From contig NW_027361677.1 in NCBI RefSeq assembly GCF_039654945.1, positions 18,538,001 to 18,602,000 on the forward strand: DNA of 64,000 nucleotides, given 5' to 3'. The position numbers and the translations under genes were made by a program. Below are positions 4,252 to 64,000 of the stretch, piece after piece. The DNA comes from Dendrobates tinctorius. Taxonomy: Eukaryota. Position 1 is the first letter of the stretch, and every line of letters begins with the position of its first letter. The notes under the pieces are model-generated. The model was not told where the DNA came from, did no database searches, and saw nothing but the letters and a program-made list of their open reading frames with translations.

Positions 4252-4300
<49 letters not shown>

Positions 4301-4319
4301 CCGTGAGTCCAGGTTGCAT

Positions 4320-5060: not shown

Positions 5061-5234
5061 AACGGTGCTACCCCAACTCCTGCTACATAATAAAACGTGT
5101 ACTACCTTATATTACAGCCTGATATCAGCGTGTTTCACCTCACGATTGGTGGTCTTGTATTTATTTCTATGTAGCTACATAGTGGGCCCAAGGTGCTGCT
5201 GATAACACAGGAGCCATCATTCCTATTTACATAC

Positions 5235-5933: not shown

Positions 5934-8900
5934 GTACAGCCGCCATGTTTAATGTGGGCAGCTGTGTAGCCAATCAGATAACTGCTTTCATTTTGTCACA
6001 TGAAAGCTGCAATCTGATTGGCTGTTCTGTGCACTTCCTATTCTACACCTCGGCTTGAGAGCACTTCCTGTTAGGGCACGAGGTGGTCACACAGGGGGCA
6101 GAGCCTTACCTTTGCCCCCCCCCCCCCCCGAAAGCTGTGAGCTCTGCCTATGGCTAGCATTGGCTGCCCAGCCAAGTGGTCATATGTCTCAAAAAAATAA
6201 AACATAGCCATATGGTGTCAAGGAGTCTAATCACAATGGAGGGGCTTCATATTTCTTTATCGCCTTATTGGGGGACACAGATTACCATGGGTGTATGCTG
6301 CTGCTGCGAGGCTGACACTCTGCACAACAAGAAAATTAGCTCCTCCCCGGCAGTATACACCCACCGACAGGCACCTCAGCTTGTGCTTAGTGTCTGTAGG
6401 AGGCGGACCGGGATCGCCCCAGATCCGCATCTAACAAATTCTTTTTCCTTTCAGGTTTTAGTTGTGTGTATTAATTTTTTTCAATTTATTTTTCAGATTT
6501 AGCATCAGGAAACGGGATGTGAGTTCATCCTGCTTTTCCATATCAGGCGGCTGAGCGAGCAATGTGGTATTGCCCACATCACAACTCTCAGGACCGCAGG
6601 CAGGACCTTCCCCTATCACCCTCGGGTGCTATGGGCTATTGACGGGTGGCTGGTCCTAGCCGATTCCCCTCCTCACCCCTCTCCCAGGACAGGGCTGAGA
6701 GGAAGACAGCGGTCGCCAGCGGTGACGTTTCCCCTGCCAGCATGAGTTTGGCGCCGTCTTCTGCACCATACGGACATGGTGCGGGTACAGAGGATCGTCT
6801 CTCCCAGCGGCCTGCTCTCTATCGTGGGCCCCTGCGGTCATCCTCTTCAGGGACATCAGGTAAGCTTATCTGAATGTCCCCTCCAGCCCCGCTCTCAAAA
6901 ATGGACTCAAGCTGCCCCATTACAGGCAGTTCAGGGCCCCTGTTTGAAATACCCGCCCTGCAGTCTCTTCACATTAATGTTATCGGGATCGGTGCCTCTC
7001 AGGGCCGATTTGAATTTCCCGCCCCCTTTTTTCACCGGGTGCTCTGTCAGACGCGCGCCTCTTCTGCTATCACCGGGGGGTCCAACGGTGGTTTCCGGCC
7101 GAGGGCAGCAACCTACCCAGTACCTTCACTGTCCCTGCGGCTTCACTGACTCCGGGCGCACTATTGCATGTTAGTGCAGGGGGAAACGCTTTCGGTTTGA
7201 AAACTTCCTCTTCCCTCTCTGCGTGCGCTTTTTAGCCCATCACAGGGCTGCTTTCACTTCAGCGCTGTCAGTCTGACCTTAACCGCGCCTCCCCTCGGTC
7301 CTCTACCAATCACGCGGCTCGGCGGTTAAGCCCTGCCCACCGCTAGCGTTTCCTGTCATTTCTGGATATCATCTTCTCTCCCTTCACCGGATCTCTTCCT
7401 GGGGGACTCAACGGTGTTTTGCTCCGCATCTGAACCTCTGTAGGCTCGGCGCTTCTACAGTCTGACGCTATAATTAGCTCTCCACGGCAGTTCCCTATCA
7501 GATAGCGCTACTACCGCATAGACATATGCCCAATCCTGCAGGGGTTCCCTGTTCTAGACCCATCGCTATTGCCTGCGCGTGCTGTAAAAAGAAGTGGGCA
7601 TCAGGTCAGTCGTCTCCTTTCTGCCCGTCCTGCAGCCCTTCCACCATGTCTGCCCCTCAGGAGCACTCCGAGCCCCGGGTTGAGAGCACCCCACCCCGAG
7701 TGGGCCGTTGCAATGTCTGTCGGTCTTGGATCTGACTAAAGTTTCTCAGTCTCTGGTCCAGGTCTTAGAACGGTTACCCCAGCTATTTACAGCCCCCTGT
7801 GCGCCGACCGCCCCTCACGGTGAGTCGCCTGCACCTGACCGCGACCTTCAGACGGACAGGCCGGGTAGGGGCTCTAGGAAGCGGGTTCTGTCTGGCTCTT
7901 CCAGCTCGCAAGGTCCGTCCGCTTCTCCCAGGCTACGCTCCTCGTCTCCCTCATCAGCAGACGACCCTAGGTCAGACGAGGATTCCCAATCTGGATCTGA
8001 CTCAGAGGCGGACAACATAGCTAGAACTCGGGACATGGTGGATAGTCTCATATCGGCTATATTCCAAACCCTCAAGATAAAGGAGGATAAGGCACCCCCT
8101 CAGGAATGCTCTGTTTCTTTTAAGAGAGCGAGGCCTCCCTCTCAAACCTTTCCTAATCACAAGGAGTTCAACACTTCATTAGCCAATCACTGGCAACATT
8201 CTGAGAAACTTTTTTCAGGCCGCAAGTACTTAGATGTGCTATAGCCCTTCGATGCGGATCTAGTCACAAAATGGACCAAAGCTCCCGAGGTAGATCCACC
8301 AGTTTTCCGTCTGTCTTCTAAGACGGTTCTGTCCCTTCCGGACAGAGCTTCGCTTAAAGATCCGACAGACAGGCAAATAGAATCATTGGCTAAGTCAATT
8401 TTTGAGGCATCCGGCGCCTCCCTCTGTCCTATTTTCGCCTCCGCTTGTGTGGCGAAAGTCATTTCAGCTTGGGCAAAAATTCTTCGCAAGGGCATTTCAA
8501 CGGCAGCACCTCAGGACGAGCTGGCAGATTTAGCAGACCAGATTAATCATGCAGGTAAATACCTCTTGGCCGCCTCCTTGGACGCGGCAGGGTGCGTAGC
8601 AAGAGCTAACAGCAACATAGTAGCCATACGCCGCATCCTTTGGTTGAAGTCGTGGAGTGCGGACACAACCTCAAAAAAGTCGCTCACCAACCTGGCGTTT
8701 CACGGCTCTTTGGCGCCAAGCTGGATCAGATAATCTCTGATGCCACTGGTGGTAAGAGTCCTTCCCTTCCTCAGCCCCGGCCTAGAAGGTTTTTTAACAG
8801 GAAAGCTTCTCGGCCGTTCAGGTCCTTTCGCCTCTTCTCTCCCGCAGAAGGTTCATCCCAGCAGATCACTATCTTATAAACCCGCCCCCCACTGGAGATC

Positions 8901-11900
8901 AAGAGGTCAGGTCTTCAGGCCCCCTGTCCGGCAGATTTTCATCTAAGTGACGGGTCACCCCCACCTGGAAATCCTTCCAGGGTGGGAGGCAGACTTTCCT
9001 CTTTCATGGACGCATGGCTATCCGTTGTCGACGATGCTTGGGTCAGGAAAATCATCACATCCGGATACAAAATCGAATTTTCTCCCCCCCAAACAGTCGC
9101 TTCTTCCTGTCTCGACCCCCAAGACAGCGGTCTCAGATTCCAGGGTTCCTTCAGGCCGGGGTTATCGTTCTCGTTCCTTCAAACGAACTGTTTTCAGGGT
9201 TCTACTCGAATCTCTTCGTAGTCCCGAAAAAAGACGGCTCCCTTCATCCAATTTTGGACCTCAAGTTGCTCAACCTCCACGTGAGGATCCTCCACTTCAA
9301 GATGGAGTCTCTGCGCTCGGTAATAGCCTCGATGGAACCCGGAGAGTTCCTCTGCTCTGTGGACATACAGGATGCCTACCTCCACATCCCTATTTGTTTG
9401 CAACATCAGAGATATCTCCGCTTTGCGATTCAGGACAATCACTACCAGTTCACGGCCCTTCCCTTTGGCCTAGCCTCCGCTCCCCGTGTCTTTACGAAGG
9501 TGATGGCAACAGTCATGGCCATTCTTCGATCCAGGGGGATTCTCATCGTCCCTTACCTGGACGATCTCCTGATCAAGGGCTCGTCCCGCCAAGACTGTCT
9601 TTCAAAGTCTTCAGATAACCCTGGATGCTCTCGGACGCCTCGGATGGATAGTCAACAAGGAGAAGTCCATCCTGCGCCCTACCCAGCGTCTGACCTTTTT
9701 GGGCATGGAATTCGACACGAATCTAGCCCGGGTGTTTCTACCGAGGGACAAGTTTTCAACCCTTTGCAAGGGAATCCGATCCCTAAAACGCTCGAGGATC
9801 ATGTCCCTTCGGCCTGCATGAGGGTCCTGGGGAAGATGATGGCTTCCATGGAAGCAGTGCCTTTCACACAATTTCACTCTCTCCCTCTCCAGCTGTTCCT
9901 CCTTTCAGTCTGGGACAAGACTTCGTTTTCTCTGGACCGCCCCATCCTCCTTCCGCTCAGTCAGACAATCGCTGACTTGGTGGACTTTGCCGGCGCCAGT
10001 TCTCCAGGGAAGGTCCTTTCTTCCGCCTCAGTGGCAAGTCATCACCACCGATGCCAGTCTCCTGGGATGGGGGGCGGTTTACCATCGAAAAACGGCCCAA
10101 TGGCGCTGGAGCGCCCAGGAGGCTCTTCTTCCCATCAACCTTCTGGAGATCAGAGGATTCTTCCTTGCTCTCCTCGTTGGCAGCCTATTCTTCGTAGGCA
10201 AACCAGTCCGCATTCAGTCAGACAACGCCACGACCGTGGCGTACATAAACCACCAGGGCGGTACTCACAGCAGGCAGGTAATGTCAGAAGTGGCGAAGAT
10301 ACTGCGTTGGGCAGAGTGTCACGTTTCGGCGATCTCCGCCGTTCACATTCCAGGGGTGGAGAATTGAGCAGCCGACTTCTTAAGTCGCCAGGGTCTAGCG
10401 TCAGGCGAATGATCCCTTCATCCCACAGTCTTCAATCAGATATGCCGACATCGATCTCATTGCATCTCGGATGAACAACAAAGTTCCTCACTTTGTAGCC
10501 AGGTCCAGGGATCCTCTAGCCGTCAGTTGCGACGCCCTGGTAATTCCGTGGTCCCAGTTCCAACTGCCTTACCTGTTTCCTCCCATTGCCCTAATCCCAA
10601 GGGTGGTCAAAAAGATAAAGTCAGAGGGCATCCCAGTCATTCTAGTGGCTCCAGACTTGCCAAGACGTCCTTGGTATGTGAACATGCTCGCGGACGTCCC
10701 CTGGAGGCTTCCAGACCGTCCAGATCTTCTCACAAGGCCCCCTTTACCACCAGAATTCTCAGTCTGAGTTTAACGGCATGGCCGTTGAGGCCGTAATTCT
10801 GAGAGAATCAGGGTTTTCCAGCCGGGTCATTCAAAACATGATCGGAGCTAGGAAGCCAGCCTCTTCCCGCATTTACCATAGGTACTGGAAGGCATTTTTC
10901 CGTTGGTGCGATAACGATGTTTTTCCATTGTCGTTCTCCATTCCATCCATACTTGGCTTCCTCCAGTCCAGTTTAGATGCGGGCCTGTCCCTCAGTACCC
11001 TCAAAGGCCAGGTGTCTGCCCTGGCAATTCTCTTCCAGAAGGATCTGGCTTCCTTACCGCAGGTGAAGACTTTTCTCCAAGGAGTCGCCCATGTGGCTCC
11101 TCATCATTCTCCGATAGATCCGTGGGATCTCAATCTCGTTCTTGACGCTCTCCAAAAGGCGCCGTTCGAACCAATCCAGGACATTCCTCTGTCCCTTCTC
11201 TCATGGAAGGTGGCTTTTCTAATCGCCATTACATCCATCAGGAGAGTTTCTGAGCTGGCGGCTTTATCCTGTCGTTCCCCGTACCTAATCTTCCACCAAG
11301 ATAAGGTCGTTCTCAGGCCAGTTCCTTCCTTCCAAAGGTGGTATTCCCCTTTCACATTAACGAAGATATCGTCCTTCCATCGTTTTGTCCTGCGCCTGCT
11401 CATCCTCTGGAAAAGTCGCTCCACAAACTGGATGTAGTGAGAGCCTTGCGAGTTTATCTTGCCAGGACCACTTCTTTTCGCCAATCCGACTCCCTGCTTG
11501 TCATCTCTGAAGGTCGCCGGAAAGGGCTTCCGGCAGCCAAGTCCACAATTGCTCGCTGGATTCGTTCTACCATCCTGGAAGCCTACCGACTTCAGGAAAA
11601 ACGGCCCCCTCCGGGAGTGAGAGCCCACTCCACCCGGGCTGTAGGGGCTTCTTGGGCTGTGCGACACCAGGCTTCGGCCTTACAACTTTGCAGAGCCGCG
11701 ATCTGGTCGTCTTTGCACACCTTTTGCAAGGTTCTACAGGGTTTATACCCAGGCCTCGTCTGATGCAGCTCTTGGTGGGAAGGTTCTGCAGGCGGCGGTC
11801 GCACATCGGCCGACCGAAGTCCTTCCTTTCGTTCCTTTGTGGCTGTTCCCACCCTCAGGAATGCTTTGGAACGTCCCATGGTAATGTGTCCCCCAATAAG

Positions 11901-14900
11901 GTGATAAAGAAAGAGGGATTTTGGGTTCTTACCGTAAAATCTTTCTTGGAGCCTTCATTGGCGGACACAGCTCCCTCCCTGTTTAAGTTGTACCGCCTTG
12001 TTGGGTTGGTACATATGTTCATGGTTTTTGGTTGCTTCTCCTACTGCTTTCTCACCAACTGAGGTACTTGATGCCTGTCGGTGGGTGTATACTGCCGGGG
12101 AGGAGCTAATTTTCTTGTTTTGCATAGTGTCAGCCTCCTAGCAGCAGCATACACCCATGGTCATCTGTGTCCCCCAATGAAGGCTCCAAGAAAGATTTTA
12201 CGGTAAGAACCCAAAATCCCTCTTTTTGGGTCCCATTTACAGCCACTAGAGTTGTATGGAGTAGTGTAAGAGTTAGCAGCACTCACTGGAAACCTGTGAT
12301 CTGGGGGTGGGGGGTGCGGTGCGGTCGCTGGGAGTTGGACCCATACTTATCTGCTAATGACTGCCCACCCTATGTATTGGTCATCCATATTGAAACCCAA
12401 GAAAGTTCCTTTAACAGTCAGAGGGAGTAGACGGTCAGATCTGATTGCTCAGTCTCCATACTGGACTCGGGGCATGAGCAAAGTTGGTCGCCATATCTAA
12501 AGGTGTAGTGTTAAGTTTGGAAGTTATTCCTGGGGTTCTAGTCGACCCTGAGAATCGGGTCCTATTCTCGCGGACCCCCAGTGTATCCTGGTTTTTATTT
12601 TATTTATTTTTAAAGTGATTATTTTTCTGCAAATAATTAACCCTCCCGGTTCTAAGTGCCTAGAACGATAAATCTTGAGTGTGTGAATCTGGCCCGGACT
12701 TGCTGCTTGCATGTAATGGAGGCATTTTAAATAGTGACGACATCACAACCTGACGGGGTTAATTGAAAGAAAACTTCTCGCGTTATCGCCTACGTGCAGC
12801 TCTGTCTTCGTATATGGTTTTTACTCCAATGTTTATTAAATGGAGCATATGGTTCATGAATTTTATGAAAGAGTTTAGTTTTTTTTTACTAAATTTTAGT
12901 GGATATTGCAGATTCTTACTCTGTAAAATTTGCTTCACTTTTTTTTTTTTTTCCGTAGGAGCAGCACTGCCAAATACTGCAGAACTGCTCCTATCCTACA
13001 GATGGATATCACTATATCCTTTCTGAAAAATCCCTTTTAAATAAAAGGAGAATCTAATCAATATTTTTTTTTTTTTTTTTTTTGTTCTCTCCCCCCCCCC
13101 CCCCCCCCAGTGTTTGAGCCCATGCACCCAAACAGAAGTCCAATATGAGACCACTTCATCTTTGGGGAAGAAGATAAAGGACTTTGTCAATGTGACTTTG
13201 TCTCCACAAAGTGGGTTACCGAAGACCGGTCCAGCAGTGCCGGAGGCGAAGGTAAGTCGCATCATCCCCAGCTATGAAAATGGGACATAAACAATCTGCA
13301 CTGCGATAACAAATGAAACTCTGCTCAACCCCTTGACAGCTTTTGGTGACTTGCACTTCTTGTTTGCAATAAATGCAGAGTTCTGTAGTGGATTTGTGTT
13401 GTCACTGCTGCAGCATGTCCAAAATAAGAGTAGTTTACCCCATTGCTAGATAGATTTGTCTGTACTAAACAGTCAGTGCATGGACCTTAAGAAGAAAGTG
13501 GCCTGCGATAAGAATTTTCTGATGACAAAATATTGAAGAGGTTGTCCATTACTTAGATATGGATTGGTCATCAATATTAGATCGGTAGAGATTCACCATC
13601 CAGCCCCCTCCGAGCAGGTTGTAGTTCCTACAAAGTGCTGTAATCTATGCAGTAGCTGTTTCAGGGTAATGCAGCTCAGCTCCTTTTCACTTCAACAGGA
13701 CCTGAGAACAGTCACTACACAGTGTACAGGGCTGTGCTGGTGCCATACTTTGTACACCCAGCTGCAAATGCCTGATTAGTGGGGAGTGTCAAGGGTCATA
13801 ATTGCTTAGGCCTTGATAACCACTTTAATTTGTTTTCTTGCTTCCAGGTTTCATCCAAGGAGAATCTAGAGCTAAAATCTCGGTTGCAGAAGATACAGGA
13901 GCTCGGCCAAAGATTAAAAGTTCCTGCTGCTCCACTCGAGAGCAAAGTTACAATCACAGACTTAAAGGCAAGACTCCAACAAGCACAAGCCCTCGAGTCC
14001 AAGATCAGGGAGAGGAAAGCCGAGAAACAGAAAGTCGCGACACAGGAGCCAAACAGGGAAAGGTGAGAAGTTCCAGGAAGACTTTTGGAATCTGTGACTT
14101 GTAGTTTTCTATAGCACGGTCTTTCCAGGAAGGTCACCATTACTCCTGTCTTGCAGTGAGAAGGCTCCGGCCTATGAGCGATTCCACACCCTCGCCCAGG
14201 ATGTTCCGCCTGGACTGTTGCTACCGTTCAGGTACAAAGTATTGGCAGAAATGTTCCGCAGCATGGACACCATTGTCGGGATGCTCTGCAACCGATCTGA
14301 GACCGTCACTTTCTCCAAAGTGAAGCGGGGAGTCCAGGACATGATGCACAAGTGAGTATTAAAGTTCTGATCACACGATGCAAGTCCTTTTATAGAACCA
14401 GAAACTGTAGATCAGTCATATTTAGAAATAAACAATACCACTTTTTTTCTATAATTTATCTTGCAGACAGTTTGAGGAACGTAATGTTGGACAGATTAAA
14501 ACAGTTTACCCAACGGCCTACAAGTTTAGACAGGAGAAGAATATTCCCACCTTCAAGAATGGCGAGAAGAAGTCTGATTATCATCTCACTATGGAGCCGA
14601 TTGTTCCGGAAGGTGAATTGTTAAATTTACAATGTGGTTGTCTGACTTCTGCCATTACTTGAGGATTTCTTAAAGCGAGTCTGTTACCCACAAAATGAAA
14701 AATTCATCTACTTAATCATTTATATAGGGAACTTAAACCCAGTAATAAACATTAAAGTGTTGTATTTGCTGGAAAATTGACTTTTTATCCATATGCAAAT
14801 GTTGGAGCTTCAGTTCACTATTGCGTCCTCCATTTTAATCTTGTCCAGCTCTGCACCTTGTCTTGATTGACAGCGCTCACTTTCTCACAGCACGATGCCT

Positions 14901-19423: not shown

Positions 19424-20969
19424 AACTGTGTTCCAAATTATTATGCAGAAAGAGTTTAGGAGTGATAAGGTTAGAATTCTTTTGTCATTTAAACTCATTG
19501 ATCGTGATGTGTGTCAGGGCTCTTTATATCACTGAAAGCAATTGCAGATACCTGTGCACATTAGTTTGGCAGGTGTGTCCAAATAATGGCAAGACTACTT
19601 AAGAAGGCTGTTCCACATTATTAAGCAGCCTACATTTTTTGCCAAAATGGGAAAGAAAAGATGTGTTGGCTGCTGAGAAGCAACAAATTGTGGAGTATTT
19701 AGGTCAAGGCATGACTACAATCAACATTGCCAAGACACTTCATCGTGCTCATCGTACAATCAAGAAGTATGTAGCTGATTCCCAGCACACATGTGTGCGT
19801 GCGGATAAGGAAAAATTGAGGACTCTTTCCAACAGGCAATTGCGTCAGGTTAAAAGAGCAGCTGCAAAAATGCCTTATCATAGCAGCAGACAAGTTTTTG
19901 AAGCTGATGGTGCCTCTAACGTCCCCCGAACAACAAGATGCAGGGTCCTTCAGAGGTTTGCAGCTGTGCGTAAGCCATCCTGTCGACCATCTCTATCCAC
20001 TGCACACAAGCAGAAACGGCTCCAGTGGGCCAAACGATACATGAAGACTGACTTCCAAACTGTTCACCGATGAGTGCCGTGCAACGCTCGATGGTCCAGA
20101 TGGATGGAGTGGAGGATGGATGGTTGATAGACACCTCATGAAAACACGGCTAAGGCGCCAACAAGGAGGAGGTGGAGTAATGTTTTGGGCTGGAATCATG
20201 GGGAGAGAGATTGTCGGCCCCTTTAGGATCCCTGAAGGGGTAAAGATGAACTCCATAATCTATGTGGAGTTTCTAAAACAGCACTTCCTGCCATGGTTCA
20301 AGAGGAAGAACCGTGCTTTCCGCAGCAAGATCACTTTCATGCATGATAATGCACCGTCTCATGCTGCAAATAACACATCTGCATCTCTGGCTGCTATGGG
20401 AGGACAAACTTATGGTGTGGCCACCATCTTCCCCTGACCTCCACCCCATTGAGAACCTCTGGAGCATCATCAAAAGGAGTGCCTATGATGGCGGGAGGCA
20501 GTTCACATCTAAGCAACAGCCCTAGGAGGGTATTCTGTCCACATGCAAAACAACTGAAGCACAAACCATCCAAAAACTGACAAATTCAATGGACGAGAGA
20601 GTTCAGAAGCTTCTTTCCAACAAGGGGTCCTATGTGCAAATGTAACATCATGAAGAATAAAGTTTTCACTTGAAAACTGTTTGATTTTATTTTGTAATAA
20701 GCTGATAATGCTTATAATTTCACAATTGACCATTTTTTTTGTTCAAAATAAAAAGGTTGAAAACTCTGCTGTGCATAATAATTTGGAACATGCAGTTTGA
20801 GTGTTTATTATTTTAAAAAATATACTGTTTTCATCGGCAGTTTGTTCAAAAACATTGCAATTATACTAGAATATTAGATGACTGGAAAATAACAATGACT
20901 GCAATTCATATAGGTAATTTAGAGAAGATATGAGGAAATATTTTTTGCATAATAATTTGGAACACAGTG
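19424..20969 (+). mobile_element. Tc1/mariner DNA transposon with frameshifted DD34E-type transposase
   Basis: TIRs (C)ACTGTGTTCCAAATTATTATGCA with flanking TA; DEC, HDNAPSH and SPDLHPIENLW motifs in ~19647-20645; internal direct repeat of the TIR core at ~20772. Confidence 0.93.
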
Positions 20970-21642: not shown

Positions 21643-24600
21643 CTGCAAATAAGACATTGGGTTACTGTGGTTGGGGTGTTTGAGGACTAATAATGGCGGC
21701 TCTTCTTTTGACTAGTTGAACCTGAATTGACATCATCATTGCTCAAGGCCAGCTAATCAAAAGAAGAGCCACAGATTCCGGTAGGTCGGAGGCTCCCGTC
21801 CATCAGTCACCGATTTCCAATCAAGTAGAATCCAAAAAGTGCAGGTAACTACTAGCACAAAAAAGAGGGAAGTTGAGTGCCATAGAAATGCAAAATTTTA
21901 TTGAGAAACAAAAACTTTCAAAAAGTAAAAAATCAGGGACAGAATATGCAAAAGAAGCCACCCATTTATGACTGACTATAACAGAAATCCAAATCCATAT
22001 AATAGGCAATTGGACAATTGTAAAAAATGATTCAATGCAGGAGTACAAAAGACAAGCAAAAAAAAAAAAAAAAAGGTGTCACTGAATGATACTGTTGGAA
22101 AATTGTAAGAAATGATTCAAGGTATCAGACAACTTTTTTTTTTTTTTTTTTTTTACTTGTTTCTTGTAGTCCTGCATTGAATCGTCTCTTACAGTTGTCC
22201 AACAGGAGTACGAGAGACAAGCAAAAAAAAAAGTCATCACGGAATGAGGCCCACATTGTGTAATTTCTTTAACTTTAGAATTTGCAATAGTATTTAGATA
22301 GGTTTTATTTATTGGAATTGTTGCTAATTTGCCTCTGAATAAACATCAGAAAATTTGCATAGCAAAATAATCTGATTCTTTATATCCACAAAAATAGTTC
22401 AAAGTACTGAAACTTGTAAGCACTAATTATGTAGCAGTAAAAGGAAAACTGATATAGAAACAAGAGCCAACTCTAAATTTTCATTGTGAGATTTGATTTC
22501 AGGAGGTGAAAATCATTGAGAAAGGTCTCATGTCATAACATACCCTGACAACTTCTGAAAATATGTAGAGCAGACACTGGCGTGGCTGATAGAGCAGGTC
22601 TCGAGGTTTACTTTGTACCAACTCTACTAAATTGTCCATCATTGAACTTCTTCTGGACATTTGAGGTCGGTGCTAAGTCTCCCAGCGGTCACATGACATT
22701 GTCACCTGGCCACTGCAGCCGATCAGTGACTGATCGGCTACAGCCTTTTCTGTTCCTTTCTGACGGAATACTGAAAGGCTGAAGCAGTTGTGAGATTCTC
22801 AAGACACACAGCACTGATCCGGAGAGAAAGTACTTTCTTCAAATGATGTAATTTAGCTGTTATGAATATGCAGTCGTTAGCAACCACTTTTAGAATCATA
22901 GAATCGTAGAGTTGGAAGGGACCTCCTGGGCCATCTGGTCCAACCCCCTGCTCAAAGCAGGATTCGCTAAATCATCCCAGTTAGATGTCTGTCCAGCCTC
23001 TGTTTGAAGACTTCCATTGAAGGAGAACTCACCACTTCTCGTGGCAGCCTGTTCCACTCATTGATCACTCTAACTGTCAAAAAGTTTTTTTTTAATGGCA
23101 TCTGGCTGCAATGCTACACACAGAATGGTGTGGCATTGTTTTTGGAAGAATTTCATAAAAATCTGACATTGGTATATAGACGAGAAGTGATATTTACCTC
23201 CGGTGGCCAATAAATCATCGATTATCACAACCTTCTGTCCGGGGTCCACCGCATCAGTCTGGATTTCAATCTCAGCCTAGAGAAACCACAAAATACAGAT
23301 ATGAAATATTAACACGTCGGTAACCCCACTAGGACATAATTGTATATATTAATCTTGAGTTTTATTGTGGGCCTATAAAGGGGTTGCCCAATATTCCGAG
23401 AATCCCCTCTGAATCCCTACGTTTCCCCCTTGTAAAATAATAACACCTATACTCATCTCCGGTGTCGGAGCAATTCCAGCAGTGTCAACACTAGCTCTCC
23501 ATTCTCCCGGAGCTCATTTTTATTCGGTCGTCCATGACAGCACCACCTGAGAGAGGGGATCCGCCCTTTAGGAACAGGAAACCTACAGATACAAAAGGGT
23601 GGCACCTCTCCGACTCATCAGTTGGTTTCCTGTTCCTAACAAGGACAGAACTCCCTACAGATCGTCCGTCATGGATAACTGAAGACCCAGGCCAGCGGAC
23701 CGGCTCAGGTAGCGGGGGGTTCTCCTACCTCGGTCTCGCTGGGAGCCCTGGATGCGCCACGGTGGGTCCGGGTAGGATTTCCACGGCAGTGGTAAGAGCA
23801 GGCGGAGACAGGGTCCGGCGGATGCCTTCTCCATGGGACCGGTGATAAGGGGTCCCCCTGTGTCTCCTTCCCCGGAGCGGTCCGTTCGGGCGGGCGCCGC
23901 CGGCGGTGTCCCACAAGGGAGCGACGGTTCCGAGCCGGCGGCGCGGTGCTAGCCCCTTGCCGCGCGTCGCGGAAGTGACGCGGCGGAGGGGGCGGGGCCT
24001 AGTGCTGAAACCGGAAGTCGGATGCCGGTCGACTTCCGGTTGTTGAGGACACGCGCCGATGCGCGCCCGCCGCCTGGCGGGCCTGAAGGGGAGGGGGAGG
24101 ATCGCAGAGCGGTCCTATGGGGGGCCCGAACACCGGACGCAGTGCCTGCTGATCCGGAGGGGAAGCCTTCTTAATGCAGAAGGCATTGCTGCTGAGGTGC
24201 TTCTGGAGGCCCAGCGATGGACACAACAGAAGCCCCCATGGACCCACAAGAGGTGCAGCCCGTGGCAAAGCACCCCAGTGACCAGCCTAAGAGGCGGAAG
24301 GAAGGAAGTGGACAGAGCCACAGTAGCTCCTCTAGGCTCCTGCAGCCCCCCGTGATCCGGTACCTATCCTCATCTGCAAGGGTAAGAGATCTGCGAGAAT
24401 GTACCCTGATGCAGTGTCCCTTTATATTTTTTTGATTCTCAGGGGAAGAAGGCCACAGGGAAACAGAAGCACAAGGAATGTGCCCTCTGTAGTTGCCCCT
24501 TACCAGATGGTCACCCTAAGAGATTATGTCAGTCTTGCGTGAGACAGACGGTAGGGACGGAGATGAGGGGTAGAACGTGAGTGGAGTATCAGACTCTTAT

Positions 24601-27600
24601 ACTCTTCCCTATTTATGCAGGTAGCGGAAGAAGCTCCAAGCTTCGCTACGGACCTGAGGCAATTAATCAGGACGGAAATAAAAGCCCTATCAAAAGAAGA
24701 TTCTTCAAAAAGAGGACGGGCTACTGTTTCAGGCTCAGACTCTTCAGTCGGCCCTAGGAGGGAAGATATCTCCTCAGAGTCCTCGGCCTCCTCTTCTTCC
24801 TCCGAAGAAGATTCCAGCCGGTTCTGTTTTCCCTTGGACCATATCGATAAATTAATTAAAACCATAAGGTCAACCATGGGGGTAGAGGAAAAAAGACAGA
24901 ACTGTCTGCTCAGGACATTATGTTCTGGGGTCTAGACCCCAGAAAGCAAAGGACCTTTCCGTTAAACGAAAAAGTCCAGAACCTGATAGACAGGGAGTGG
25001 GAAAAAAGGGGTTCTATGCCGCCTGCTTTCAAGCGGAGGTACCCCTTTGAGGACCCAATAGTAAGTCGATGGGATAAGGCCTCCAAAAAGTCATCTATAC
25101 CCTTCGACGATATGGCCTCCCTTAAAGACCCCCTAGATAAAAAGGCAGATTCCTTTTTAAGGGGCACTTGGGAGATGTCAGCAGGCGCCCTAAGGCCAGC
25201 AATAGCAGCCACGTGCGCAGCCAGATCCATGATGGTCTGGCTGGATCAATTGGACTCCCAGCTAAAGGATGGGACCTCGCGAGCTTCCATCCGTAAGTCT
25301 CTTCCAATTATCCAAAATGCTGCTGCCTTTCTGGCAGATGCCTCGGCAGACTCTGTAAGAATGGCGGCCAGGTCTGCAAGCTTGTCTAATTTGGCCCGAA
25401 GAGCCCTCTGGTTGAAATGCTGGCCGGGAGATATCCAAGCCAGGTCCCGTCTCTGTTCTATCCCCTGTGAGGGTGAATACTTGTTCGGCCCCGTCCTAGA
25501 CGAACTGTTAGAGAAAGCCGGGGACGAGAAAAAGAAATTTCCGAGTCTGCCGAATATATCCTGGAGACGTCCCTTTTCTAGGAAAGGGTATTCCCGCAGG
25601 AGGCAGGCCAGAGATCAGAACAGATGGGACAACAAGAAAACCAGAGGTACGGGCTTCATGTTCGGAGGAGGGGGGCGCCAAGAAGGTCCATCACGGGATA
25701 ATAAGAAACCGCTCCAATGACTAGTGGCTCCAGTAGGAGGAAGATTATCTGCCTTCTACCCGGCCTGGGCCAGAATCTCAAATAGCAGCTGGATACTGGG
25801 GGTAATAGCTACAGGACTGCACCTAGAGTTCTCCTGCGTTCCCCAAGACCGGTTCAAGGTAACTCCGCTCAAATCTTCCCCGCTAGAACAAGCTGCCCTG
25901 GAAACCGAGGTCCTCGAGCTACTGGACAAAAAAGTCCTGACGAGAGTTCCAGAGGAAGAGAGGGGGAAAGGCTTCTATTCCCCCCTGTTCTTGGTCCGTA
26001 AACCGGACGACTCATTTAGGGCTATATTTAATCTCAAAGCCCTCAATAAATTTCTGGTCGTTCGACCATTTAAAATGGAAACAATTAACACCGCAATAAA
26101 AATGCTGTTTCAAAACTGCTTCATGGTGGTCCTAGATCTGAAAGACGCGTACTATCATATACCCATATGTCTAGCTCACCAACCTTTCCTTAGACTGGCG
26201 GTTCAGTTGGAGGGGTCAATCCAGCACTTCCAGTACGCGGTCTTACCCTTCGGGGTGGCAGTTGCACCCCGAGTATTCACCAAAGTGATGGCAGAGGTGA
26301 TGGCCCATCTGCGCGAATTAAATATTCTAGTCGTTCCCTATCTAGATGACCTCCTTATAATAGGCAGTTCAGCAGAGCAATGTTTAGAACAGTTACAGAA
26401 AACAACGGCGGCTCTAGAGCGGTTGGGATGGTTACTTAATATCAAAAAATCCCGTTTGCAGCCATTAAAAATTCAACAATTTTTAGGCCTAACCCTAGAT
26501 TCTAAAAAACAGGAATGCCGTCTGCCCCCAGAGAAGCTGCTGCACCTACATGGCCGGGTCCTGAACGCTTTCAACAACCCCTCCATGTCCCTCAGGAAAG
26601 CCATGTCCCTGTTGGGTTCCCTCTCGTCCTGCATTCCCGCGGTCCAGTGGGCCCAAGTTCATACGAGAACTCTACAGGGCGAAGTTTTGTGGTATCAGAG
26701 GTTTCTTGGGGATAACTTAGAAGGTCGACTGACCTTATCCAGAAACACAATAGAGTCCCTGGAATGGTGGCTAGAAAGAAATAACTTGTCTAGAGGGGTC
26801 CCTTGGGAGTATAACATTACCCGCGTGGTCACCACGGATGCAAGTCCTTCCGGTTGGGGGGCGCATATGGAGGGAATTCTGGTCCAGGGCCTATGGGAAC
26901 GGGATCAAATACAAATGTCTTCTAATTTAAAAGAATTGACAGCGGTAGCACACGCAGCTAAAGAGCTCCTTATGTATCTACAGGGCCATCACGTACGAGT
27001 TCTCTCGGACAATCGAGTGGCCGTGGCCTATATCAATCACCAAGGCGGAACTCGATCCAAAACTCTGATGAATGTGGCAGGACAGTTGTTCCAGCTAGCG
27101 GAGCGGCATTTTTTATCTCTCACGGCTCTTCACATAAGAGGGAAAGAAAACGTCGCGGCAGATTTCCTAAGCCGCAATCTGTTAAAACAGGGAGAGTGGA
27201 CCTTAAACACCTCCATTTTTGTTCAGATCATACAGAGATGGGGTCAACCAGAGGTGGATCTATTCACCACCAAAGAGAAATCAAAAACGAGACAGTTTTG
27301 CTCCCTAAACCCCAGGGAGATTCCTCTGGCAGTAGATGCGCTACTGATAAAATGGGACTTCAGGCTAGCCTATGCCTTTCCTCCCCTATCTCTACTTCCT
27401 CTGGTGTTGAGGAAGATCAGGAAGGACAAGGCAAGAGTCATAGTCATTGCCCCTTTCTGGCCCAGGAGAGCATGGTTCTCGAACCTCAGGATCATGTCGA
27501 TAGACGATCCTTGGGTTCTCCCGGACATCCCGGACCTTCTGTCCCAGGGCCCGGTCTTCCACCCTCAGGTGGCTGGCCTACATCTCACGGCGTGGAATTT

Positions 27601-30600
27601 GAGCGGTCACTCCTAAGGGGTAAAGGTTTCTCCCCAGACCTAATTGACACTCTACTAAAAAGTAGGAAAGTGGTGACAACTAAGATTTACGTCAGAATTT
27701 GGAAAAGATTCCTCCAAAGCTCAAATATAAATAATGACGATTCCGTCCCTATAGGCCAGATCTTGGAATTTTTACAAAAAGGGCTGGACCTGGGTCTCTC
27801 CACCAGTACCCTTAAAGTACAGGTATCTGCCTTAGGGGCCCTCTTTAGCTGCAACATCGCGGCTAATTACTGGGTCAATAGGTTTATCAAAGCAGCAAGT
27901 AGGTCCAGACCAATAGTAAAGAATAGACTCACGCCATGGGATTTGAACCTAGTCCTCACAGCTATGACAGAAGCGCCATTTGAGCCCATCTCGTCAGCCT
28001 CTATTAGGAGCCTGTCCCTCAAGATAGCTTTCCTGATAGCCATAACGTCAGCCCGTAGGGTAAGCGACATTCAGGCATTGTCTAGGCGCCCACCTTTTCT
28101 TCAGGTAAAAGAGGATAGGGTAATACTTAGACCTGACCCAGTGTATTTACCAAAAGTAGCCTCCAGCTTTCATAGGTCGCAGGAAATAGTCCTCCCATCC
28201 TTCCTCCCTAAGCCAACTAATGAGAAGGAGGAGAAGCTACACACTTTGGATGTTAGGAGATGCCTCTTAGAGTATCTAGCGGCTACCGATCCCTGGAAGA
28301 AGGACAATGCCCTCTTTGTCTCCTACCAAGGCCCTAGGAAAGGTCTTAGGGTGTCCAAAAGTACTCTAGCCAGATGGATTAGAAAAGCAATCTCGTTAGC
28401 TTATACCTCAAAAGGTAGAGTAGCTCCGGAGAAATTGAAGGCGCATTCCACCAGAGCCATGGCGACCTCGTGGGCCGAGAGATCGGAAGTCTCCATCGAC
28501 CAGATTTGTAAGGCGGCCACTTGGTCCTCTCCGAGCACTTTTTATAGTCATTATAGGCTAGACTTGGGTGCTTCTGCAGACCTCTCCTTCGGTATCAGGG
28601 TTTTGCAGGCTGTAGTCCCCCCCTAAAGTAGTGATTACTCTCTGTAATTCTCTCAGGTGGTGCTGTCATGGACGACCGAATAAAGTCTTAGTTACTCACT
28701 GGTTAACGGTATTTTTCTGAGTCCATGACAGCACCCGTATATTCCCTCCCTTAAATTTAATTGGGGTGTGCACGTCTATTTCTTGTATGCTCACTGGTGA
28801 TAAAAGTTTATAATTGTAAAGAATACTGTACATAAATCATGCATTAACCTTGGAAGTCCTCTTGTGCTCTGTAATCCAACTAATGCGTGGGAGAGGTGCC
28901 ACCCTTTTGTATCTTTAGGTTTCCTGTTCCTAAAGGGCGGATCCCCTCTCTCAGGTGGTGCTGTCATGGACTCCGAAAAATACCGTTAACCGGTGAGTAA
29001 CTAAGACTTTTCTCTCTAAAAGCTTCCTTCCACCTCCCGGGGCTCCATTTCACCTCTTGAGGCTCCTTTCACTCTCACTTCCACCTGCCGGGGCTCCCTT
29101 TGCTCTCCTTTCCGTCTTCTGGGGCTCCCTTCCCTCTCAAGGCTCCCACCTCCTCAGGTTCCCTTCCAAACCAACTCCCAGGGCTCCCTTCCACCTCCCG
29201 AGGTTCCCTTGGCTTGCTCTTCCACCACCTGAGACTCCATTCGCACTCCCTTCCACCTCCCAGGGCTCCCTTCACCCTTCTTTTCCCTCTCATGGCTCCC
29301 TTCCACCTCCTGGGGCTCCTTTCGCTCTCCCTTCCACCTACTGGGGTTCCGGAGTTCCTTTCGCTTTCCCATCTACCTCCTGGGCTCCATTCCCTCTTCC
29401 GGGGTTGCTTTCGCTCTCCCTTCCACCTCCTGGGGCTCCCTTCCCTCTTCCAGGGTTCCTTTCGCTCTCCCCTCCACCTCCTGGGGCTCCCTTCCCTCTT
29501 CCAGGGTTCCTTTCGCTCTCCCCTCCACCTCCTGGGGCTCCCTTCCCTCTTCCAGGGTTCCTTTCGCTCTCCGTTCCACCTCCCGGGGCTTCCTTTCCTT
29601 TCCCTTCCTAAGGACATAATTAACATCAGGAGTAGGTGAGGGCAGCAGCACCTATCACTTCCTCCAGACATCTTGATTTTTCAGAAGGAGAGGAAACTGA
29701 AGGCAGTGCTGATCGGCATTGCATGTACCTGCACCAATACAACTGGAACAGCGCCGCCACCGGAGGAGAGGATAGGTTTTTATTTTACTGGGGGAAATTA
29801 CTAACAGGGATTCAGAAGGGGTGGTCCGGGTAGTGACTCTGTGCCCCCCGTGCTGGCGGTATTCACTAATGCTCTGCACGCACCTTTCCGTACTCCAGAG
29901 AATAGGACACTGACTCCGTCGGACCCGGTAACTTGCCCTTTTTCCGAATCAACACAAACCCAATTCCAAGTCTTTGTGCCAGTGCCGGACCGAAGAGAAA
30001 CCCGCGGGCGTCCAGACCTGGAAGAGGGGATGCCGGGTAATAGTTACCGTATTTTTCGGACTATAAGACGCACCCCAATTTTCAGAAGGAAAATAGGGAA
30101 AAAAAATAATAATGTGTCAAATGGGGGTCCGTCTTACAGTCCGAATTCAGATTACCTGGGAAGGGATCTGGCACAGGTGGAGAAGTAGACACAGGGGTCA
30201 TTCAGTGGTCCAGGCTTGTGCGGTGGCGGCGGCTCTGTGCTGGGGCAGCTGCGCTGGGGCAGGGGCAGCTGTGCTGGGGCAGCTGTGGCAGGGGCAGGTG
30301 GGCTCTGCGGTTGTGGCAGCGCTCTGCGGTGCGGTGGTGGCAGCGGGCTGTGCTCCGATGCAGGGGCGGCAGCTCCGCCGGCGTATCTTCGCAGCCCAGA
30401 GGCCCCCGCACACCCCTTGCTGGGCTCCGCCATGTTGCGGTGGCCTCCGGGAGCATGGACGCCGGCAAGATGGCCGCCGGTCCGGGGACAGCGCATGCGC
30501 AGCTTCAGATCTCGTGCCGAGATCTCGGGGGACGAGATTCAAATCTCGGCAACGAGATCTCGTCCCCCGAGATCTTGGGACGAGATCTGAAGCTGCGCAT

Positions 30601-32574
30601 GCGCCATCCCCGGACCGGCGGCCATCTTGCCGGCGTCCATGCTCCCGGAGGCCACCGCAACATGGCGGCGCCCAGCAAGGGGTGTGCGGGGGCCTCCGGG
30701 CTGCGAAGAAACGCCGGCGGAGCTGCCGCCCCTGCACCGGAGCACAGCCCGCTGCCACCATCGCAGAGCCTCGCCCGCTGCCACCACCGCACCAGGTACC
30801 GTGCATTGCGACCATAAGACGCACCCCCCACTTTCCCCCAAAATGTTTGGGGAAAAAAGTGCGTCTTATGGTCCAAAAAATACTGTATGTACTTCACACA
30901 CGAGAAGAAGCTGCCGGACCCAGAGTGTTATGAATGGGTCACCGAGGAGGAGAGCGCAATAGGTTATGCCACCAGAACACCAGAGAGGTTGGTCGCTCAG
31001 CGGATTGCAGACGCCTGATCTTAACAACACAACTAGCAGTAGCCGTGGAGCGTTCCTACGTTGCCCTAGACGCCTCGTCACAGCCTGGAGGACTAACTAA
31101 ACCTAAAGACAGAAAGGTGAAATCTAAACTGCCCCGGAGCAGACCCCAAAGGAATAGACAGCCCCCAAACAAATATTGTCGGTGAGACAAGATTAAGAAC
31201 AAACACAGACAGAAAATAGACTGAGCAAATGATGGGTCCCACACTGACTAGACAGGACAGAAAAGGCAACTGTCTGCAATCACGCAAAAACCCTAACAAT
31301 TCCAACAGGACTGATGTACAAAAATACTGAGGTTTGCACAAACCTCGCCCCCACTATATCAGCGCTCAGGTGTGAACTGGCGGCTAGCAACAGGCTAATA
31401 CAGCAGGAGACTGAGCAAACAAACACAAGATACAAAAATACAGGGCAGGAGCAAGCTGACCCCTGACAGCAAGGCAAAAATCAGATGCAAAGGGTTTAGC
31501 AAATGACACTTAGCTGAAAAATGCAGGATCAGGCAGGAGACAGAAATCCTCAATAAGCAAAGAAAGGAGTATCACCGGCAGTCACTGAGAGAAGTCTGCT
31601 TGCTTATGTAGTCCCAGTCACTACCACCACTCCTCCAATTATCTTCTGCAGCTGTTGGGCTAACATCATGATGACCAGCTCCACTACCAGCAGTATCCAC
31701 CAGAGGGAGCCCTGTCTCAAAAGTCAGATTAAGAGAGTTCACAACACCAGAGATTTAGGAGGAGACATTTTTTAATCATGACTTCCTGCGAATCCATAGC
31801 ACCCAACCCCAAACTATAGCTTGCCTTACTCACCGTCCCTCAGTCCAGTCAGTGAGCTCAGCGATTGTCTACGTGACAGCGGTGACTGGAGCAGTGCGGG
31901 AGAGTCTGAGCTGGACTGCAGAAATTTGTCTACCCCTTTAACCTCTGGATAAGGTGAAGGCAGAGGGAAGCCATATTGCCCCCCATCCCCCACCCGCCTG
32001 GCGCTCCCTTACCAGCGATCAGATCGATCTTTGGAAAGTTTTCTCGGAGGTAGTTCTCAAACAGGTCGATGGTGGCGGAGAACGCGGCGGGGTCTTTAAG
32101 AACTGGAGTGATGTCCCTGGAAAGTGAGAATCGGAACAAACACGCATAACGCATAGCCATTGGTACCTTTGTTAAAGGCAATGTTTGGGGGAGGCGAGGG
32201 GTTAAAGGTGTCATCAAGGATATTTAGAAAGTGGCAGGAAGTAACATCTACCGCCATTGGTGGTCGTCGCGGTGATGACATCACATACTGTGATCGTATT
32301 TTTTTTATTATTCCCACCAGTAACAGAAATAAAAAAAAAATCCTAATTATCTACATACTGAAATATAATGTATGCATATTATGCAAATTAACTGGTAATT
32401 AGGCTCTAATGTTCCAGCAGCGGAGCTTCGCCATTACTATGCCCGGACTCTGCCCCCCGCTTCTCAGGATCACAGACCAGGAGACACCGACCTGAAGCAG
32501 ATCCCGGGGGAGGGGAAGTCCGGGAACTCCCGCACCGATCGCCGCAGCACTGCCCGCCGATCCTCCACACTCAT
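21500..32574 (-). CDS. APRT: Adenine phosphoribosyltransferase, spliced gene (5 exons, 180 aa)
   Basis: Exons 32574-32492, 32116-32013, 30017-29884, 23276-23198, 21642-21500 total 543 nt; motifs [45 protein letters not shown]-binding [13 protein letters not shown]. Confidence 0.97.
22892..23085 (-). mobile_element. CR1 LINE 3' fragment
   Basis: AGAATCATAGAATC tail and GTTGGAAGGGACCTC...GGTCCAACCCCCTGCTC typical of CR1 3' ends. Confidence 0.75.
23198..23276 (-). CDS. APRT: APRT exon 4
   Basis: [26 protein letters not shown]. Confidence 0.96.
24217..25720 (+). CDS. DIRS-B gag-like ORF1, predicted spliced (24217-24381, 24443-24550, 24621-25720 with a 1-nt frameshift near 24890)
   Basis: Zinc finger CALC...CQSC, then [11 protein letters not shown] and [10 protein letters not shown] motifs also recognisable in DIRS-A gag. 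Confidence 0.75.
25724..27616 (+). CDS. DIRS-B pol: reverse transcriptase, RNase H and Dam-like methyltransferase domain
   Basis: Open 630 codons; [34 protein letters not shown]...YAFPP...APFWP. Confidence 0.95.
   Translation: MAPVGGRLSAFYPAWARISNSSWILGVIATGLHLEFSCVPQDRFKVTPLKSSPLEQAALETEVLELLDKKVLTRVPEEERGKGFYSPLFLVRKPDDSFRAIFNLKALNKFLVVRPFKMETINTAIKMLFQNCFMVVLDLKDAYYHIPICLAHQPFLRLAVQLEGSIQHFQYAVLPFGVAVAPRVFTKVMAEVMAHLRELNILVVPYLDDLLIIGSSAEQCLEQLQKTTAALERLGWLLNIKKSRLQPLKIQQFLGLTLDSKKQECRLPPEKLLHLHGRVLNAFNNPSMSLRKAMSLLGSLSSCIPAVQWAQVHTRTLQGEVLWYQRFLGDNLEGRLTLSRNTIESLEWWLERNNLSRGVPWEYNITRVVTTDASPSGWGAHMEGILVQGLWERDQIQMSSNLKELTAVAHAAKELLMYLQGHHVRVLSDNRVAVAYINHQGGTRSKTLMNVAGQLFQLAERHFLSLTALHIRGKENVAADFLSRNLLKQGEWTLNTSIFVQIIQRWGQPEVDLFTTKEKSKTRQFCSLNPREIPLAVDALLIKWDFRLAYAFPPLSLLPLVLRKIRKDKARVIVIAPFWPRRAWFSNLRIMSIDDPWVLPDIPDLLSQGPVFHPQVAGLHLTAWNLSGHS
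27196..28626 (+). CDS. DIRS-B tyrosine recombinase, overlapping the 3' end of pol
   Basis: Catalytic R (SARRVSDI), HSTR, AATW, FYSHY; ORF open. Confidence 0.93.
   Translation: MDLKHLHFCSDHTEMGSTRGGSIHHQREIKNETVLLPKPQGDSSGSRCATDKMGLQASLCLSSPISTSSGVEEDQEGQGKSHSHCPFLAQESMVLEPQDHVDRRSLGSPGHPGPSVPGPGLPPSGGWPTSHGVEFERSLLRGKGFSPDLIDTLLKSRKVVTTKIYVRIWKRFLQSSNINNDDSVPIGQILEFLQKGLDLGLSTSTLKVQVSALGALFSCNIAANYWVNRFIKAASRSRPIVKNRLTPWDLNLVLTAMTEAPFEPISSASIRSLSLKIAFLIAITSARRVSDIQALSRRPPFLQVKEDRVILRPDPVYLPKVASSFHRSQEIVLPSFLPKPTNEKEEKLHTLDVRRCLLEYLAATDPWKKDNALFVSYQGPRKGLRVSKSTLARWIRKAISLAYTSKGRVAPEKLKAHSTRAMATSWAERSEVSIDQICKAATWSSPSTFYSHYRLDLGASADLSFGIRVLQAVVPP
29020..29610. repeat. Pyrimidine-rich minisatellite (CCACCTCCTGGGGCTCC...TTTCGCTCTCC, ~52-bp higher unit)
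   Basis: Visible tandem units directly after the DIRS-B right end. Confidence 0.85.
29884..30017 (-). CDS. APRT: APRT exon 3
   Basis: [45 protein letters not shown]. Confidence 0.96.
30047..30885. mobile_element. Tc2/pogo-like non-autonomous element with a long internal palindrome
   Basis: TA-CCGTATTTTTCGGACTATAAGACGCAC ... GTGCGTCTTATGGTCCAAAAAATACTG-TA; GC-rich arms ~30336-30540 and ~30555-30760 are reverse complements. Confidence 0.85.
30926..31746. mobile_element. Solo LTR
   Basis: TGTTATGAA...TTCACAACA termini, flanked by direct repeat CCAGAG. Confidence 0.8.
32013..32116 (-). CDS. APRT: APRT exon 2
   Basis: [34 protein letters not shown]|GTAAGG. Confidence 0.95.
32492..32574 (-). 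CDS. APRT: APRT exon 1
   Basis: [30 protein letters not shown] donor. Confidence 0.92.
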
Positions 32575-32579
32575 TCTTC

Positions 32580-32700
32580 TTCTTAACGGAGCACGTGATC
32601 GCCCCCTGACGTCATCACTGCGCGACCGGCAGACCCACGTGTGACGGCGGAAGCCGCCATCTTGGCACACCCGCGACACCCTGGGATCGAACGCGCCGAG
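32580..32700 (-). promoter_or_regulatory. APRT CpG-rich promoter (E-boxes, CRE, ETS, YY1)
   Basis: CACGTG twice, TGACGTCA ~32607, CGGAAG, GCCGCCATCTTG ~32653 immediately upstream of the ATG. Confidence 0.65.
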
Positions 32701-32774
32701 CAGAGCAGATTCTTCTTGTTAGTTTACATTAGGAAGAGTAAATAATACCCATCTGTGACCCCTATAAATCATAT

Positions 32775-33560
32775 TAATACCCCACATCATTGACAGCTAT
32801 AATAATACCCCACATCGCTGTCATCCATAATAATAATCTCTCACATTGGTGACATGTCTAATAATACCCCACATCATTGACTTCTATAATAATAATACCC
32901 CACATCGGTGTCATCTATAATAATAATCTCTCACATTGGTGACATGTATAATAATACCCCACATCATTGACTTCTATAATAATAATACCCCACATCGGTG
33001 TCATCTATAATAATAATCTCTCACATTGGTGACATGTCTAATAATACCCCACATCATTGACTTCTATAATAATAATACCCCACATCGGTGTCATCTATAA
33101 TAATAATCTCTCACATTGGTGACATGTCTAATAATACCCCACATCATTGACTTCTATAATAATAATACCCCACATCGGTGTCATCTATAATAATAATCTC
33201 TCACATTGGTGACATGTATAATAATACCCCACATCATTGACTTCTATAATAATAATACCCCACATCGGTGTCATCTATAATAATAATCTCTCACATTGGT
33301 GACATGTCTAATAATACCCCACATCATTGACTTCTATAATAATAATACCCCACATCGGTGTCATCTATAATAATAATCTCTCACATTGGTGACATGTATA
33401 ATAATACCCCACATCATTGACTTCTATAATAATAATACCCCACATCGGTGTCATCTATAATAATAATCTCTCACATTGGTGACATGTATAATAATACCCC
33501 ACATCATTGACTTCTGTAATGATAATACCCCACATCGGTGTCATCTATAATACCACACAT
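32775..33560. repeat. 90-bp tandem repeat built of three ~30-bp subunits (~8.5 copies)
   Basis: Period 90 at 32861, 32951, 33041 ... 33491. Confidence 0.95.
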
Positions 33561-34203
33561 CAGCACTTCCTACCTTCTCATTGTTTCCCATAAGAGGCGC
33601 TCCATTGATTTCTGATCCAAGATGTCCGTCATATTGGGCCCCTTTCTCCGCTTCAGACCTTCATAAACTCACTACCCCTAGCATTACACACAGAACGCTT
33701 TTGGAGCAGATTGAAGCTTTTATTAATCAATGTGTATGACTGGCGCATGACTGTGTGCACACTGAGCACATAGATCAGTCCCAGTGATCGGCTCCTGTCA
33801 AAACTTGTGCAATAAAATAAGAGTTCAAGTGGCCGACGGCGTCCAATCAAGCTGCTGTTCTTCTGTTACCTGCAGTGACATCTGGAAAACTTTTGTCCCT
33901 CTTGTCTGCTCCAGTTTTTACACTGGAGACCCTTATTCACTTGGCCGAGTCGACCATTCCTGTGTAAGGCGGAGATAGTTGTCGGCTGAACGATTAGCCG
34001 ACAACTAATGTGTATCTGGGTCTCTACCCATTCTAGATGTCACTCACGTGACCTGATTGGTTCCCTTTTAAAATTGTGTTATCCTATTGAGACTAGTCCT
34101 CAAATTTCCACCAAACCATCACTACAAGCCCATTACAGTTCATTATGGGAACTGAGGAAAAGCGGTAGGAATCCAGTAAGTGTCAGGACAGCGTGGACCC
34201 TCA

Positions 34204-63350: not shown

Positions 63351-63399
63351 TGTTCTTGTGGGGGCGCAGGTCACATCACTGCTGCTAGACGTGGGATAA

Positions 63400-63980: not shown

Positions 63981-64000
63981 TAATTTAAAACAACTCCTAG

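Follow-up and report, generated by a model that had tools for sequence, protein, structure and literature searches.

How the reverse transcriptase of a retrotransposon is made when its gene opens directly behind a stop codon is the question raised by a junction in a 64,000-nucleotide stretch of the Dendrobates tinctorius genome (the window). The element carrying this junction, at 23519..29010 on the + strand, is a DIRS1-like tyrosine-recombinase retrotransposon of about 5.5 kb with TTT at both ends, identified by its sequence ends, repeats and domains. The left inverted terminal repeat (23530..23628, 99 nt) is 95% complementary to the right one (28873..28971). An internal complementary region (ICR, 28650..28735) matches both ends, with an overlap at the 3-nt circle junction (AAA at 28682-28684): the part 28682-28735 is complementary to the right end (28957-29010) according to a repeat search and the left half to the left end of the element by eye. 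The same pattern of TTT ends and AAA junction is given for XtDIRS2/3 in Table 3 of PMC3266345. In a protein search, the nearest named proteins were those of hyloid frogs, dendrobatids among them, with 50-78% identity.

The main coding part of gag (24621..25720, +) ends at the TGA and carries a LAP2alpha domain (PF11560, 52.1 bits, E 7.8e-14 in a Pfam scan), and an ORF1 of the LAP2alpha type is described as a trait of vertebrate DIRS1-like families (PMC4495291, PMC9210276). The pol ORF follows at 25721..27616 (+) and ends with TAA; it combines reverse transcriptase (RT; PF00078, 70.9 bits against a cut-off of 29.6, E 1.5e-19), RNase H (PF17917, 24.0 bits, just under the cut-off of 24.8, E 4.4e-5) and a methyltransferase-like tail. 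Both RT and RNase H align to the Ty3 RT-RH when a pol profile is compared with solved structures; the tail has no Pfam match but contains the AFPP and PFW motifs of a published table. The tyrosine recombinase ORF (26962..28626, +, 554 codons) is in the -1 frame relative to pol and overlaps its last 217 codons; PF00589 is matched below the cut-off (E 2.4e-4) and the HSTR motif is present. A second, decayed DIRS1-like element (6249..12225, +) served for comparison. It is heavily frameshifted, belongs to another clade and has AAG TGA CGG at 8948-8950 with pol at +1 to the stop; its long-overlap frame appears open over RT. Elsewhere, the window contains a broken Tc1/mariner-like transposase reading (19603-20437) with what we take to be DDE-type motifs, a GC-rich inverted repeat of 209 nt (96% complementarity, 18-nt spacer) in a MITE-like element (30330-30765), and long, strongly strand-skewed minisatellite arrays whose units measure 51/55 nt and 45/46 nt (56560-64000); more minisatellite arrays are found at 4300-5100, 29000-29640, 32700-33640 and 36150-37460.

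The gag stop TGA (25718-25720) is preceded by CAA and followed, in frame with pol, by CTA GTG GCT CCA GTA GGA GGA AGA, exactly as reported by the first-pass annotation, so the segment 25718..25724 (+), TGA plus CTAG, is a candidate readthrough site. Among the 2530 stop triplets that the + strand of the window contains, 3 belong to TGACTAG and 9 to TGACTA. The pol ORF was also correctly placed in the gag frame, its length having been given as 630 codons where 631 sense codons are counted (25721-27613). The first in-frame ATG of pol is indeed at 26075, inside RT: it corresponds to Met119, after RAIFNLK (residues 100-106) and before DLKDAY (139) and YLDD (207). The pol profile aligns to the Ty3 RT (4OL8) from position 51 and to 8R0S from position 42; because RT homology to solved structures starts at these positions, initiation at Met119 would cut the enzyme, and the claim that an independent AUG start would truncate RT holds. 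UGA-CUAG had been put forward as an established vertebrate readthrough motif. This is borne out by PMC4132726 for OPRK1, OPRL1, MAPK10 and AQP4, for MDH1 (about 3.5%) and, as UGA_CUA, for Sindbis virus; LDHB, also named, appeared only in a search listing. A +1 frameshift at the gag stop was considered and rejected, as it would meet a TAG two codons later.

To place this copy in its family, contigs from four runs, one per study, were compared over 23450-29050. In each of the four runs the longest junction-crossing contig had no gap, with 6, 10, 12 and 9 substitutions over 468-743 nt. The in-frame gag-pol junction is a family trait, crossed gap-free by contigs from four studies. Family copies are about 1-2% apart in these contigs, and the depth of the DNA-run junction contig (425, compared with about 9-13 for rare-variant contigs of the same run) suggests some tens of near-identical copies. 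No substitution or indel fell within 25718-25724 among the 40 of 496 differences and the 12 of 64 indels listed, and the neighbouring position 25713 differed at 100% in all four runs. Conservation of the junction in family copies, a check proposed in the first-pass annotation, is thus seen for the frame, and we infer it for the seven letters of the motif. N-D or S-D is read across the stop in many frog relatives, and the in-frame TGA might accordingly have come from the loss of a single base in this copy alone, an idea ruled out by the gap-free contigs in all four runs. A private nonsense mutation is unlikely, the gag proteins of relatives P0224 and P0018 ending at the same place. Near 24888 the gag frame of this copy is broken, a break absent from runs X7 and X9, and because of it the copy could not itself make Gag-Pol. 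In pol, 4 of the 7 copy-versus-family differences listed are synonymous, too few to read selection.

The residues encoded directly behind the stop look like those of a translated protein. Compared with 25 relatives, 15 of 16 conserved positions are kept in pol residues 5-55 and 30 of 33 in residues 56-135, and AlphaFold predicts two helices in residues 11-40 with pLDDT 94-95. The stimulatory stem envisaged downstream of the stop was not supported: in all four windows of the element, the RNA past the stop folded no better than shuffled sequences (z of 0.37, -0.78, -0.17 and 0.91, pseudoknots being outside the model); the value was -1.64 for the 80 nt past the stop of the second element. A weak downstream fold counts little against UGA-CUAG because 12 downstream bases sufficed in reporters, and readthrough of the motif in human cells is described as independent of a 3' structure (PMC4132726). 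Levels of readthrough in human reporters are given as about 3.5-31% (PMC4132726) and 0.5-6.4% (bioRxiv 10.64898/2026.07.14.738498), the latter source relating efficiency to the -1 codon and the +5 to +27 context.

The recombinase frame behaves differently over the two parts of pol. Over pol codons 1-413 it contains 16 stops, about as many as expected of an unconstrained frame (15.1 +/- 3.3 in a synonymous null); over codons 414-631 it contains none, where the null has a mean of 8.0 and was open in 0 of 5000 cases. Its open stretch begins at 26962 and, seven codons on, reaches a CAG (26981-26983) that would close a candidate acceptor preceding GHHV (26961..26983, +; 11 of 17 pyrimidines by eye). 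This acceptor is phase 1 in the recombinase frame and matches a candidate phase-1 donor, GTGAAT, in the PCEG motif of gag (25473..25478, +), where frog gene models leave gag. The GHHV site is a join in five gene models of close relatives, these being choices of the predictor made in the pol frame. Another candidate phase-1 acceptor (25864..25886, +; 12 of 17 pyrimidines), the first of better quality past the stop, would lead into pol residue 56 by a rival route. Upstream, a candidate first gag exon of 55 codons starts from ATG 24217 (24217..24381, +) and is followed by a candidate 61-nt GT..AG intron (24382..24442, +), a candidate exon with a CxxC-x-CxxC zinc-finger-like motif also present in models P0018 and P0019 (24443..24550, +) and a candidate 70-nt GT..AG intron (24551..24620, +) that is unspliced in family contigs; both introns would be phase 0, and the gag pieces are out of frame unless both short segments are removed. 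No GT..AG joint and no spliced contig were present among the 15 of 61 joints listed; the runs may not be RNA (their type is uncertain for X1 and X4 and a guess for X7), so that little about splicing can be drawn from unspliced contigs. Judged from these signals, the element looks like a retroelement whose gag keeps short introns at 24217-24620, and we infer that both gag and the recombinase would be expressed through splicing.

Which gene follows the gag stop was then considered in relatives. Among 116 proteins with a readable lead-in, 53 have N-D, S-D or H-D at most 16 residues before VGGRL, a background count being 14 of 241 windows. As read from the sequences, this lead-in is the footprint of a TGA-C or TGA-T gag stop with pol at +1. 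In most readable relatives pol is at +1 to gag, and the distance from the stop to VGGRL is often 13 nt compared with 12 nt here; the in-frame arrangement is therefore not the general DIRS1-like state. In-frame junctions are under-counted in protein data because the stop ends the ORF. A gene model of R. imitator (P0063, 61% identical) begins with MT at an ATG overlapping a forced TGA-C, and when back-read in the shifted frame it allows the stop, four codons and VGGRL without a gap, the spacing found in this element. Another frame shift lies within about 10 codons at that locus, where a one-base slip is possible, and the grouping of P0063 with this element, P0001, P0019 and P0021 (88/71) is not strongly supported; P0063 is one moderate witness and the only clear independent in-frame relative. 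The same spacing fits P0090 (Dendropsophus), but ambiguously. A +1 lead-in into pol is absent from all 9 of the closest gene models (66-78% identical), which is indirect evidence. Two Gag-like models from Engystomops (P0031, P0032) stay free of stops across the beginning of pol, in pol's +1 frame, and may represent a third junction layout or a domesticated copy.

More distant relatives were provided by a metagenomic set of 80 loci (31-40% identical), 73 of which cover the pol start while 7 lack it. The 73 loci comprised 19 of class A (frame open past the gag stop), 31 of class B (frame closing after gag), 7 fused and 16 unclassified. In the 19 class A loci, the gag stop is followed by 331-1027 open codons in the gag frame over pol, and this ORF reaches the recombinase wherever the contig extends that far. 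The class A gag stop is TGA in 16 of 19 cases, TAG in 3 and TAA in none (TGA in 14 of 16 after 90% de-duplication). With the second element removed, TGA is the gag stop in 2 of 31 class B loci; class A loci form a single clade, and of the rows outside it this element lies nearest (96, FastTree), so this contrast is not an independent sampling and the stops within the same elements are the better control. In those same 19 loci, pol ends with TGA in 2 of 17 cases and the recombinase in 4 of 12. CAR-TGA-CTA is found at the gag stop of four loci (L012, L016, L034, L054), leading there into the recombinase; the base after the gag stop is C in only 6 of the 19. Finally, at least 300 open pol-frame codons lie upstream of RT without a stop in 7 of the 73 loci, so that a Gag-Pol-like fusion is tolerated.

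Several individual loci show further arrangements. In L001, L005, L012, L023, L026, L034, L046, L047, L054 and others, a gag stop, mostly TGA, leads into about 1000 dual-coding codons over all of pol, and the first ATG of the long overlap ORF comes as late as codon 509-550 in L029, L047 and L054. In the related YR retroelements L002, L007, L010, L011, L015 and L024, 390-600 open codons are fused to pol in frame, with no stop, giving one Gag-Pol-like ORF. In L019, a 557-codon ORF ends with TGA (L019:2860-2866) in frame with pol, 46 codons before VGGRL, and the recombinase frame is also open; this may be another in-frame case or a copy-level shift. DIRS-like pol sequences in long contigs labelled as bacterial MAGs (L081, L082, L083; a 1.5 Mb Nitrospirales contig, Stappiaceae) are likely due to eukaryotic contamination or mis-binning. 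No relative was found in viral contigs, genome contigs gave 4 distant loci (an in-frame junction in 0 of the 2 examined) and a short-protein search gave 1 match.

Three other ways of accounting for the junction were weighed. Pol could be made from a spliced RNA joining the gag donor at 25473 to an acceptor at 25724, 25733, 25736 or 25886 (pol residue 56). All four acceptors match the donor in phase, gag itself seems to be spliced through its phase-0 GT..AG segments of 61 and 70 nt, many frog models exit gag at PC[EQR]G and continue into a pol lying at +1, and models P0019, P0074 and P0075 have EQLALE at or beside a join. These models are predictions forced to bypass a stop or a shift, however, and the in-phase AGs within 70 nt past the stop lie in purine-rich surroundings (8-9 of 17 pyrimidines), whereas use of 25886 would lose the conserved residues 5-55. 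The sole contig-derived gag-pol join, P0016, was rejected as a spliced Gag-Pol transcript, since it has no GT at the join when read against the family proteins P0224/P0228 and so is not GT-AG compatible; P0229 looks like a 10-nt deletion variant. No such joint was found among the 15 of 61 listed, and we consider splicing into pol unlikely.

A founder that lost one base from a +1 layout would have had a silenced pol, in which case UGA-CUAG would be a relic and the family would have spread by the RT of other families. The spacing one base off that of common relatives fits this history, as does an acceptor-like site with an open +1 frame upstream of the stop; the RT of DIRS-1 is reported to act in trans (PMC7192593), and copies about 1-2% apart are too young for visible decay. 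The open +1 frame is uninformative, however, being forced by the gag residues and open in all 3000 synonymous shuffles over 45 codons, and pol is intact over 631 codons. The spacing of P0063 at 61% identity and the absence of a +1 lead-in from the closest models also speak against such a founder, which makes it rather improbable. Still less probable is that pol starts alone, whether through reinitiation, from a CUG or GUG just past the stop, or by means of an internal promoter such as the minor one described at the Tca2 junction (PMC2194720). A GTG is available at 25724, with GTA and CTA codons before VGGRL, but its context is weak (C at -3), and reinitiation at the AUG overlapping the stop was rejected because the -1-frame ORF that begins there is only 22 codons long. 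An independent start would also leave the preference of relatives for TGA at gag stops unexplained.

Stop-codon readthrough, proposed by the first-pass annotation, is the best-supported route for this family. It is preferred because the junction is in frame in all four runs, no AUG occurs before codon 119 and residues 5-55 are conserved; because the near acceptors are poor, P0063 is in frame and the gag stops of class A are rich in TGA; and because the recombinase frame is closed over RT, stop-free Gag-Pol fusions appear tolerated and UGA-CUAG needs no 3' structure. Points against it are the lack of a hairpin, the single clear in-frame relative, the +1 arrangement of most relatives, the restriction of class A to one clade, the absence of a GT..AG joint among those listed and the precedent of Tca2. 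On balance, intact copies probably make RT as a low-level Gag-Pol product by UGA-CUAG readthrough: they would produce mostly Gag, together with Gag-Pol on the order of a percent, and a Gag-recombinase from spliced RNA.

In many relatives the gag stop opens the recombinase frame, while here stops close this frame over RT and it becomes open again only shortly ahead of an in-phase acceptor; readthrough thus likely switched from the recombinase to pol. In the ancestral layout, the same UGA would have led into a recombinase ORF of about 1000 codons, pol being in the +1 frame; a change of one base in the spacing would have put pol behind the stop, and a splice from the phase-1 donor at 25473 to the phase-1 acceptor at 26983 would have taken over expression of the recombinase. 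This scheme as a whole, in which a one-base shift in a frog clade made an inherited leaky UGA serve pol instead of the recombinase, the recombinase moved to spliced RNA and gag kept short introns, is put forward tentatively; we hold it to be possible, at somewhat less than even weight.

The sources found, as far as they go, contain no account of readthrough or spliced expression in DIRS elements; older DIRS reviews, Repbase Reports and Xenopus ORF tables may bear on the matter. The long pol/YR overlap itself is already in print (PMC3266345). How the start-less second and third genes of DIRS elements, which are abundant in frog and fish genomes, are translated is unaddressed in this literature. 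The junction would represent a short UGA-CUAG signal feeding a whole enzyme in a vertebrate transposon, and the relatives suggest that a single-base shift can redirect a recoding signal to another gene; gag-stop-pol readthrough as such is an already known strategy.

Gammaretroviruses such as MuLV express gag-pol across a UAG with the help of a pseudoknot. As in MuLV and Tca2, gag and pol are here in one frame across a single stop, which would give a low Pol:Gag ratio; unlike in MuLV, the signal is UGA-CUAG with no supported 3' structure, and the element encodes a tyrosine recombinase and not an integrase. Because DIRS elements are described as lacking a protease (PMC3783388), Pol would stay tethered to Gag. 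For the in-frame gag-UGA-pol junction of Candida Tca2, PMC2194720 indicates that the flanking sequence alone need not give readthrough. The element resembles the amphibian DIRS1-like elements (XtDIRS2/3 and Xenopus families; PMC3266345, PMC9210276) in its inverted terminal repeats, ICR, TTT ends and AAA junction, LAP2alpha gag, RT/RH/MT pol, overlapping YR ORF and size of about 5.5 kb. It differs from their descriptions, which in the parts available to us are silent on how pol or YR is translated, in that a single UGA-CUAG separates gag from a pol ORF of the same frame, the long YR overlap has shrunk to the last 217 codons, and intron-like segments occur in gag. Its seven-base core is identical to that of AQP4, OPRK1, OPRL1, MAPK10, MDH1 and alphaviruses (PMC4132726); unlike in the vertebrate readthrough genes, the extension would not be a short tail but a 631-residue enzyme.
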